Assembly: GCF_058153355.1 (NCBI RefSeq)
Contig: NZ_CM177019.1
Direction: 5' to 3' (one strand)
DNA length: 64,000 nt
Shown: positions 3,001 to 6,000 of the stretch, in pieces
Position numbering within the stretch: position 1 is the first letter of the stretch
How the letters are laid out: every line of letters starts with the position of its first letter
Position numbers: made by a program

Positions 3001-6000
3001 CGCGAAAAGGAGACAGCGAAGAAAAACCAACCGGGAAAATGGACGTAAAAGGCTCTGGAGCGATAACAGACCTGACAGACAACCTTTTTATCATCTGGCG
3101 TAACAAGGCTCGCGAGAGAGCGTTACAGAGAGTTCAGAGTGGTGAAAAGATGTCAGAGAAGGACGAACAGTTACTGGCGTCTCCTGCATCTGTTTTGATG
3201 CTTGAAAAACAACGTAACGGCGAAGGCTGGGAAGGTGGTGTCCCGTTGTTCCTTGACGAGCAATCGCACCAGTTCCTGCAACTTGAATCAGGATCGCCAT
3301 ATAGCTACATCGCCAATATGCCGAAATCGGAATATGACGAAGCGTGGCGACAGGAAAACATAACGGAGTATTAAATGACCATCTACATCACAGAGCTTAT
3401 AACAGGTCTGCTGGTAATCGCAGGCCTTTTAATTTGGGGGAGAGGGAAGTCATGAAAAAACTAACCTTTGAAATTCGATCTCCAGCACATCAGCAAAACG
3501 CTATTCACGCGGTACAGCAAATTCTTCCAGACCCAACCAAACCAATCGTAGTAACCATTCAGGAACGCAACCGCAGCTTAGACCAGAATCGAAAGCTTTG
3601 GGCTTGCCTTGGTGACGTCTCTCGTCAGGTTGAATGGCATGGTCGCTGGCTGGATGCAGAAAGCTGGAAGTGTGTGTTTACCGCAGCATTAAAGCAGCAG
3701 GACGTTGTTCCTAACCTTGCCGGGAATGGCTTTGTGGTAATAGGCCAGTCAACCAGCAGGATGCGTGTAAGCGAATTTGCGGAGTTATTAGAGCTTATAC
3801 AGGCATTCGGTACAGAGCGTGGCGTTAAGTGGTCAGACGAAGCGCGACTGGCTCTGGAGTGGAAAGCGCGATGGGGAGATCGGGCTGCATGACTATCAAA
3901 TCAAATACGCCAGCACACGACAAGGACTGCTGGCAAACGCCACTTTGGCTTTTTGATGCGCTGGATATTGAGTTTGGATTCTGGCTGGATTCGGCAGCGA
4001 GCGACAAAAATGCTCTGTGCGCTCACTGGCTAACTGAGGCCGACGACGCGCTCAATTCTGAGTGGGTAAGCTACGGTGCAATCTGGAATAATCCACCGTA
4101 CAGCAATATCAGGCCGTGGGTGGAAAAAGCCGCTGAGCAGTGCATACAACAGCGACAGACGGTAGTTATGCTTGTGCCAGAGGATATGTCAGTCGGATGG
4201 TTCAGCAAGGCTCTGGAGAGTGTTGACGAAGTTCGCATCATCACTGATGGACGGATTAATTTTATCGAACCATCGACAGGGCTGGAGAAAAAGGGAAACA
4301 GTAAAGGCTCAATGCTGCTGATTTGGCGACCGTTCATCAGTCCCCGGCGAATGTTTACTACCGTATCCAAAGCGGCATTGATGGCGATCGGGCAGGGCGT
4401 CAGGAGGGCGGCATGAGGCGACAGCGACGAAGTATTACCGACATAATCTGTGAAAACTGCAAATACCTTCCAACGAAACGCTCCAGAAATAAACGCAAGC
4501 CAATCCCAAAAGAATCTGACGTAAAAACCTTCAACTACACGGCTCACCTGTGGGATATCCGGTGGCTAAGACATCGTGCGAGGAAATGACTATTTATCCG
4601 GTGCGCCGCCAGAATGACGGCGCGGTGTGGTTAAACGAAGCGGATCTGGAGTTTTTTTCCAGTAGCGCGGGCGAATTTTTTTAGGGTGGCAAATGATGGG
4701 CCGCTGATACCTGATGCGAGATTACTTTCCATTCTGGTGATCGCGGTCGCTTTTGTTCCCATTCGCTCGGCAACTTCAGCCTGAGTTAAGCCAGCTTCTT
4801 TGCGTGCTGCCAGCATTTCATCAAGCAGTGCGAATTCGTCAGCGATAGCGTCGTATTCTGCTTTAAAAGCCGGGTCTTCCATCCATTTGGCTGCCATTTC
4901 GTCGTGTGTCATGGTGGGGAGAGTGCGTTTACCAGTCATGCTTAACCTCCTTCATTCTGGTTTCAGCTTTCTTGCGTTCGGCTGGCGGTGTTTTCTGCGT
5001 TTTCTTTACAAAACTATGCAGCATGATGATGCGTTTCCCTGTCAGAGTGCAGTAAAAAACACGCGCGATCCCATCGTTGCCTTTAATTCTGAGTTCGAAA
5101 AGCCCGTCACCAAAGGCGCTGGTGTGAGGTTCTCCGAGATTGCTGCCATATACCTTCATACGTTCAACGAGATGTTGGTATCGGGCACGCATACTCAATG
5201 GAAGCCGATCGACTTCCAGCCTTACATCTTCACTGTAGTATTCGATAGTGTAGTTCATAGGTATCAACATAACAAAATCGTTATATGCATTCAAGGCCTG
5301 TAGTTGACGACAACACATATCCGGGGCTATATTCCTCATACGCCAGCAAAATCTGGCGTCGGGATTGAGACCCCGGATGTTTACGGAGCGATATGAGACG
5401 CGCCCGCGTCTTTTTTCATATCGTTTGCACAGTCACATTCGCGATTTATGGTGGGCTGTGTGGGGGAGCCGAAAGGCTCGCCGGTTTCCGTACCCGGTAG
5501 TCTCAACCCTGCACAGCTCGCCACCAGATGATTGAGACCAGAAGGTGGCGATAATGACCAAATGTACGGAGTTATCGTTATGCTCACTCAAATTTCTGTC
5601 GACACTCTTCCTGCAATCACCCACAACCAGATCCCCGTTATTACAACTGAACTTCTGGCGCAGTTATACGGAACAAAAATCAAAAACATTTCTGATAATT
5701 TTCTGAACAACACGACGCGATTCGTGGTAGGAAAGCATTACTTTAAAATTGAAAAAAACGAATTACGCGAGTTTAAGAACAGACCCGAAACAATCGGGTT
5801 AGTTGGTAAAAATGCCCGCTCTCTTATCCTCTGGACAGAACGAGGCGCAGCCCGCCACGCAAAAATGCTCGAAACCGATCAGGCGTGGGACGTGTTCGAA
5901 AAACTGGAAGACTGCTATTTCAGCCAGACTTCGAAAAGCGCAGGTCATCACGAGAAGAAAACCAGCGAGCTTTCTGCAAAAGATGCAAACAGTCTGGTAT

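Follow-up and report, generated by a model that had tools for sequence, protein, structure and literature searches.

Within the RelE/ParE superfamily, type II toxin-antitoxin modules of the Gp49/Tad-Ata class make up the HigBA-like, 'reverse-order' branch. The Gp49 group is treated as a separate family within this superfamily (PMC11980606, Table 1; PMC5906591), its Pfam family PF05973 comprises about 22K entries (PMC11980606), and a toxin-first gene order is typical of the Tad-Ata group (PMC5906591). In reviews (PMC2701414 and PMC5906591, citing Dziewit et al. 2007; PMC2654960), gp49/gp48 of phage N15, s044/s045 of SXT and tad-ata of Paracoccus pAMI2 are presented as experimentally supported stabilising toxin-antitoxin modules, the Tad toxins as RelE relatives and the Ata antitoxins as Xre-type helix-turn-helix (HTH) proteins. 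HigB1 of M. tuberculosis (Rv1955) is a ribosome-dependent mRNase that has been observed in the A site (PMC9098466). Here, we analysed two overlapping minus-strand genes of a lambdoid prophage in a 64,000-nucleotide stretch of contig NZ_CM177019.1 (NCBI RefSeq assembly GCF_058153355.1; hereafter, the window). The two genes very probably form a type II toxin-antitoxin operon of the Gp49/Tad-Ata class, carried by the prophage as an autonomous 0.72-kb moron. The evidence consists of the family and fold of the toxin, the gene order, the strict pairing of the two genes across relatives and the purifying selection on each, the boundaries of the cassette, and a conserved palindrome with a conserved promoter geometry. 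The cassette contains the following elements, given in window coordinates.

4603-5321, minus strand: whole toxin-antitoxin cassette (moron) of 719 bp, with hairpin, antitoxin, toxin, operator and promoter
4929-5258, minus strand: toxin gene, Gp49/Tad (HigB-like) member of the RelE/ParE superfamily, 109 amino acids (aa), ATG at 5258
4929-5339, minus strand: maximal toxin open reading frame (ORF), 136 aa
4631-4939, minus strand: antitoxin gene, N-terminal helices and C-terminal XRE-type HTH, 102 aa
4946-4950, minus strand: Shine-Dalgarno sequence GGAGG for the antitoxin, read from the sequence, within the 3' end of the toxin gene and 6 nt before the antitoxin ATG
5269-5284, no strand assigned: candidate operator ATAAC-N6-GTTAT (ATAACGATTTTGTTAT), a conserved palindrome
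5266-5294, minus strand: promoter-like elements found by comparative alignment, with -35 TTGAAT (5294-5289), a 17-nt spacer and -10 TATGTT (5271-5266)
4603-4623, minus strand: conserved GC-rich hairpin of 9 bp, immediately 3' to the stop codon of the antitoxin, fold -18.5 kcal/mol, z = -3.25

The initial annotation of the window had described two overlapping minus-strand genes, encoding a small basic RelE/HigB-like protein and an XRE-HTH partner. Both ORFs were present, with an 11-nt overlap that runs from the ATG of the antitoxin (4937-4939) to the TAA stop codon of the toxin (4929-4931). The toxin is a basic protein of 12.8 kDa with an isoelectric point (pI) of 9.55, and the antitoxin has a pI of 8.0. 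The family call was borne out by Pfam searches of both proteins. The toxin matched Gp49/PF05973, a RelE/ParE superfamily group often named HigB, with 91.1 bits (cut-off 23.9) over profile positions 3-90 of 90, and the downstream protein matched HTH_3 with 43.5 bits (cut-off 23) over residues 44-98 of 102, which identifies it as an XRE-type HTH protein. PF05973 was carried by all 120 toxin homologues among the matches listed, and it was the sole Pfam match of the toxin, with none to PF05015 (HigB-like) or PF09907 (HigB) at E ≤ 0.01. The toxin also matched PHROG 2523 end to end (154 bits).

The gene order of the window pair is toxin-first, as in the Tad-Ata group. The pair most closely resembles gp49-gp48 of N15, whose gp49 is the namesake of the Pfam family. 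The two toxins are 46% and the two antitoxins 38% identical, and both pairs are carried by temperate phages on the strand opposite to their neighbours, with the PF05973 toxin gene first, overlapping genes and an XRE-HTH antitoxin. The N-terminal beta-strand segment of the window toxin (MNYTIEYY) remained unmatched in the alignment with gp49. In contrast to N15, a linear plasmid-prophage for which a stabilising role is an obvious fit, the window pair resides in an integrated lambdoid prophage. The canonical HigBA systems (HigB of Rts1/Proteus vulgaris, PF05015; HigB/YgjN of E. coli K-12, PF09907) share the superfamily, the toxin-first order and an HTH antitoxin with the window pair, but differ in the Pfam families of their toxins. 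The pair is an ordinary member of a known toxin-antitoxin class that annotation pipelines already name correctly. RefSeq/PGAP uses 'type II toxin-antitoxin system RelE/ParE family toxin' and 'helix-turn-helix domain-containing protein', one phage record names the pair HigB/HigA, the exact toxin sequence is present in NCBI as a RelE/ParE family toxin, and close variants from Shigella sonnei and S. flexneri are named 'prophage protein gp49'. The finding has little importance beyond correct annotation and will not surprise a specialist.

Structural comparison placed the toxin in the same group. Its best sequence match in the PDB was HigB of Streptococcus pneumoniae (6AF3), and a profile of 33 toxin homologues also matched M. 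tuberculosis HigB1 (7NBU/7AWK). The AlphaFold2 model built from the homologues (predicted local distance difference test, pLDDT, 90.2; predicted template-modelling score, pTM, 0.82) consisted of a beta-sheet with flanking helices, with strands at residues 46-84 and a long basic C-terminal helix at 92-108. When this model was compared with the PDB by Foldseek, the top eight matches were S. pneumoniae HigB (6AF4/6AF3) and M. tuberculosis HigB1 (7NBU/7AWK), followed by YafQ, RelE, YoeB and ParE. S. pneumoniae HigBA was the best PDB match for the window pair in both sequence and fold (toxin profile E = 1.5e-9, Foldseek TM 0.73-0.78; antitoxin against HigA, 6AF3_B, E = 1e-3), although it is a Gram-positive chromosomal locus with about 20% identity.

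The catalytic pocket of HigB1 is formed by K58, E66, R68, N73, R77, F93, K95, Q98 and K99, with equivalents in the S. pneumoniae protein (PMC9098466). Seven of these nine positions were identical in the window toxin by profile alignment only: E55, R57, R66, F83, K85, Q88 and K89, corresponding to HigB1 E66, R68, R77, F93, K95, Q98 and K99, respectively. The catalytic residues E66, R68, R73, F90 and K92 of S. pneumoniae HigB aligned with E55, R57, R66, F83 and K85. Over 33 diverse homologues, H45, E55, R57, R66, H81, F83, K85, K86 and K89 were invariant, and Q88 was the one shared pocket residue that varied. HigB1 has in common with the window toxin the Gp49-like fold and the long C-terminal helix, as well as these pocket positions. 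However, HigB1 and E. coli HigBAC belong to toxin-antitoxin-chaperone (TAC) systems, in which a third gene encodes a SecB-like chaperone and the antitoxin carries a chaperone-addiction tail. The window cassette has neither; it consists of two genes in 719 bp, with the HTH extending to residue 98 of 102 in the antitoxin and with NinE and isrK/C4/antirepressor as neighbours.

The pairing of the two genes was surveyed by scanning IMG/VR with the toxin alignment, which returned 80 viral loci. An antitoxin homologue was located directly downstream on the same strand in every one of them (80/80), and three genomic loci in Methylospira and Glaciimonas showed the same arrangement with an 11-nt overlap. 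Across all 83 loci, the overlap amounted to 11 nt in 52 and to 8 nt in 16. Both genes are under purifying selection, with ratios of nonsynonymous to synonymous substitution (dN/dS), relative to the copies in phages POCJ13 and PhiR5_2, of 0.14-0.15 for the toxin and 0.03-0.10 for the antitoxin. The Pfam scores, the low dN/dS values and the pairing in 80 of 80 viral loci therefore exclude chance ORFs. In PhiR5_2, the toxin and the N-terminal region of the antitoxin had diverged together, and the HTH part was nearly unchanged; such co-divergence is consistent with a putative toxin-binding N-terminal region and a DNA-binding C-terminal region. Lesions confined to the toxin were found in several relatives, namely a 1-nt frameshift in one locus (L064, 5198-5204) and an ATA start codon in PhiR5_2 (L005, about 3161) and in two IMG/VR loci (L055 cluster). 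The antitoxin was intact in each of these relatives, a pattern that fits a gene which is harmful when unguarded.

The start of the toxin gene was assigned to the ATG at 5258. Homologues from many taxa nearly all begin at an MNYT equivalent to this codon in the homologue alignment, the sequence upstream of it contains frame-breaking indels of 3-5 nt between close relatives, and in 27 of 28 distinct relatives the toxin ATG lies 6-7 nt past a conserved -10-like hexamer. For these three reasons, 5258 is the right start. The 136-aa ORF reaching to 5339 was ruled out by the upstream indels and the MNYT starts of the homologues. Another candidate, the ATG at 5270, was rejected because it falls within the conserved palindrome and -10 element and the homologues begin with MNYT.

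The region preceding the toxin gene is itself conserved. A strict TAAC-N6-GTTA was present at the same position in 28 of the 46 distinct upstream sequences, including loci with unrelated flanks. In the most distant relatives (L070-L089), it was replaced by TAGC-N6-GCTA, that is, both half-sites had changed symmetrically. No second exact copy of the palindrome was found in the 64-kb window. The -10-like hexamer overlaps the right half-site and reads TATAAT, TATTAT or TATCAT elsewhere, with TTGnnn 17 nt upstream. Its position relative to the palindrome was conserved in 27 of 28 distinct relatives, and in the window 7 nt separate TATGTT from the toxin ATG. This geometry of palindrome, hexamers and start codon suggests that the promoter is autorepressed, that the toxin message is leaderless and that the antitoxin encoded after it is strongly translated. 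At the other end of the operon, the hairpin was retained in the cassette copies of POCJ13, PhiR5_2 and VL40. The toxins of the most distant relatives mentioned above, found on IMG/VR contigs of about 7-14 kb, were 47-54% identical to the window toxin, and their gene pairs belonged to small elements of about 11 kb, where a tyrosine-integrase gene and a Rep-like gene directly preceded the pair.

Comparison with related phages defined the cassette boundaries. Phage P27 aligned to window positions 4300-4585 and 5318-5662, and between these two matches it had 24 bp instead of 4586-5317. In P27 and many Shiga toxin (Stx) phages, ninE is followed directly by the small-RNA gene isrK, so that 4586-5317 represents an insertion relative to them. 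The segment shared with Shigella phage POCJ13, where the context differs, was exactly 4603-5321 (92% identity). The junctions contain an imperfect direct repeat, TATCCGG(T/G)GC (TATCCGGTGC at about 4595-4604 and TATCCGGGGC at about 5318-5327), and the empty site of P27 contained one repeat copy within the spacer of the isrK promoter. POCJ13 retained part of the isrK promoter (TTGACGACAACACATATC), though isrK does not adjoin the cassette there. No compositional anomaly indicative of foreign origin was detected (cassette GC 0.47-0.50 versus 0.44-0.53 in the flanks). The pair had been proposed to be a moron embedded in the nin region, and this proposal holds. Related phages lack the 719-bp cassette, a discrete insert with promoter-like elements, a candidate operator and a 3' hairpin of its own, and with an orientation independent of the flanking operon. 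NinE is encoded in the window, and NinB, a Dam-type methylase, RusA, NinH and Q are annotated in a matching locus (93.6% identical to the window over 4300-5671). The accompanying claim that the two genes were the only prophage genes on the opposite strand proved incorrect, as a gene for an IpaH-like effector is also encoded on the minus strand at 36724-38487.

The following mechanism is proposed for the pair. In a lysogen, the operon would be transcribed leftward from its own promoter, opposing the early-right transcription unit. The toxin message would begin at or next to its AUG and would be weakly translated, and the antitoxin, with a strong GGAGG and an overlapping start, would be made in excess despite the toxin-first order. 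The N-terminal helices of the antitoxin would bind and neutralise the toxin, while its C-terminal HTH would bind ATAAC-N6-GTTAT, overlapping the -10 element, and thereby repress the operon. Once the supply of antitoxin stopped, the toxin would enter the ribosomal A site, cut mRNA in the manner of M. tuberculosis HigB1 and halt translation. For the two proteins, this model predicts toxicity, neutralisation, RNA cleavage and DNA binding. The compact layout, with a predicted operator inside the promoter, a predicted leaderless toxin message and a presumably strongly translated antitoxin, would make the pair an easy system for experiment.

Several observations weigh against assigning the pair to the functional toxin-antitoxin modules. 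Two positions relevant to toxicity are not kept, as K58 and N73 of HigB1 correspond to S47 and D62, and for this reason the toxin is judged likely, but not certain, to be catalytically competent. M. tuberculosis HigB2 and HigB3, from which some of the pocket residues are missing, were non-toxic (PMC9098466), and no experiment on the present toxin subfamily was found in the literature searched. A generic scan called no minus-strand promoter in front of the toxin; the hexamers match 8 of 12 consensus positions, below the threshold of 9 of 12, and were recovered by comparative alignment only. The 3' hairpin is not followed by a U-tract and was not called by the terminator scan; it may serve as a terminator or as a 3' stabiliser. 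The AlphaFold2 model of a fused toxin-linker-antitoxin chain (pTM 0.76; antitoxin N-terminal helices with pLDDT 95-97; the linker alone disordered) favours contact between the two proteins but is supportive only, since it carries no interface metrics.

As regards its biological role, the pair presumably acts as a selfish addiction or retention cassette. It may also make prophage loss costly to the cell, or abort infections in which host expression is shut off. A different emphasis, according to which the main role is anti-phage defence, with the toxin released on host shut-off or antitoxin degradation to bring about abortive infection or superinfection exclusion, concerns the biological role and is compatible with the type II toxin-antitoxin mechanism described above. 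We regard it as possible but rather doubtful. The pair is accessory cargo of a prophage at a variable mosaic junction; of 5426 complete E. coli genomes, only 30 contained DNA resembling it, in every case on the chromosome, and the surrounding stretch (window 4500-5450) was matched in 2233 of the 5426. For phage defence by a HigBA unit, a single precedent was found, the TAC-class system HigBAC of E. coli, which confers phage immunity (bioRxiv 10.1101/2024.02.24.581848), and the M. tuberculosis TAC toxin is Gp49-like. However, HigBAC senses phage through the SecB-like chaperone and the C-terminal extension of its antitoxin, neither of which is present in the window cassette. Residues 49-99, in the C-terminal half of the toxin, partially matched NsnC, a PADLOC candidate protein, at its C-terminus (36.6 bits), but PADLOC-DB v2 gave no system-level match, the antitoxin yielding weak generic HTH matches. 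According to PMC2654960 and PMC2701414, moreover, the validated relatives N15 gp49/48 and SXT s044/s045 were shown to be plasmid-stabilising modules and not defence systems. The pair can reasonably be put forward as a prophage-retention or abortive-infection candidate in a lysogen of the Shigella/E. coli type.

The substitutions S47 and D62, together with the toxin frameshifts and start-codon changes in some relatives, could also be explained if the pair were a decayed, non-toxic relic comparable to M. tuberculosis HigB2/HigB3, that is, a DNA-binding regulator with a passenger protein. We consider this unlikely. The window copy is intact, and the dN/dS of its toxin (0.14-0.15) speaks against decay. 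Seven of the nine active-site positions are kept, six of them invariant in the 33 homologues, as are H45 and H81, and the basic C-terminal helix is retained in the toxin model.

The genes around the operon raised the question of a regulatory connection. The order at the locus is primase/helicase, NinB, Dam-type methylase, NinE, the toxin-antitoxin pair, isrK, C4, antirepressor, Rha/ANT, DUF1364 and RusA. The neighbouring features in the window are as follows.

4413-4589: NinE
5304-5333, plus strand, facing isrK: sigma-70-type promoter TTGACG-18-TATATT, whose start fits the Rfam 5' end of isrK
5340-5416, plus strand: isrK Hfq-binding small RNA (sRNA), 70.6 bits (Rfam)
5444-5528, plus strand: C4 antisense RNA, 75.9 bits
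5532-6257, plus strand: ORF6N/P22AR_C antirepressor, directly downstream of isrK and C4
6326-7054: Rha/ANT protein

The isrK, C4 and antirepressor genes have the arrangement of an isrK-orf45-anrP or P1 immI-like control unit. The closest E. coli relative of the locus (FDAARGOS_943, L001 6686-8393) has its ninB split by IS600; ninB is intact in the window.

It is very unlikely that the pair is wired into the isrK/C4-antirepressor switch, either through its HTH protein, in a role like that of P22 Mnt in an immI-like locus, or by coupling of toxin-antitoxin to antirepressor expression via the back-to-back promoters. The -35 elements of the toxin-antitoxin operon (5289-5294) and of isrK (5304-5309) are indeed divergent and only 9 bp apart. 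Likewise, in most enterobacterial relatives the opposite strand carries a C4, isrK or sRNA-Xcc1 RNA and an antirepressor gene at 80-450 bp upstream of the toxin. A functional link looked striking from the relatives but was downgraded after 110 isrK loci had been sampled independently. Sixteen different upstream sequences were found among them, with NinE in 35 loci, DUF1364 in 29, RusA in 15, unknown sequences in 23 and the toxin-antitoxin pair in 8. Homology between the isrK loci always began at the isrK -35 element, and the left edge of the isrK module was sharp, with unrelated upstream sequences joined to the core TTGAC-N-TCCGGGGCTATATT (IMG/VR loci L090-L209). POCJ13 carries the cassette with no isrK adjacent to it, and in non-enteric relatives the pair lies beside capsid, terminase, tail or integrase genes, with no such RNA. 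The single occurrence of the palindrome in the 64-kb window also argues against coupling. Owing to the 16 unrelated upstream neighbours, the onset of homology at the isrK -35 element and the absence of the RNAs in non-enteric relatives, the adjacency of the pair and isrK is best explained as a mosaic recombination junction and not by a common function.

Also very unlikely is a reading in which the back-to-back placement of the two promoters is more than a mosaic accident and the cassette is linked to the lysis-lysogeny circuitry by either of two routes, in which the antitoxin or the complex bound at 5269-5284, or leftward transcription of the cassette, would tune the firing of the isrK/C4-antirepressor unit, or antiterminated early-right transcription running antisense through the cassette at induction would cut the antitoxin supply and free the toxin; if true, a toxin-antitoxin module would be tied to the decision between lysis and lysogeny.

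Other features of the window were also recorded. For the structural half of the prophage, the phage collection yielded no close cultured phage, the best coverage being about 15%. Two tRNA genes are located within 8691-8843 on the plus strand, ahead of the prophage lysis region. The minus-strand gene at 36724-38487, just after the tail-fibre genes, encodes a 587-aa protein with LRR_TTSS and NEL E3-ligase domains (258 bits). It is an IpaH/SspH-type type III effector gene and the second minus-strand cargo of the prophage, and its presence points to Shigella or enteroinvasive E. coli as the host. A group II intron is located on the plus strand in the chromosomal part of the window (51411-53717), with a D1-D4 domain at 51411-51558 (112 bits), a 3' catalytic domain at 53641-53717 and, between these two, a 580-aa ORF at 51894-53636. 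An naRNA4/CssrE repeat element matched both strands at 58836-58912, and the sRNA MicF was identified on the minus strand at 62580-62673 (116.8 bits).

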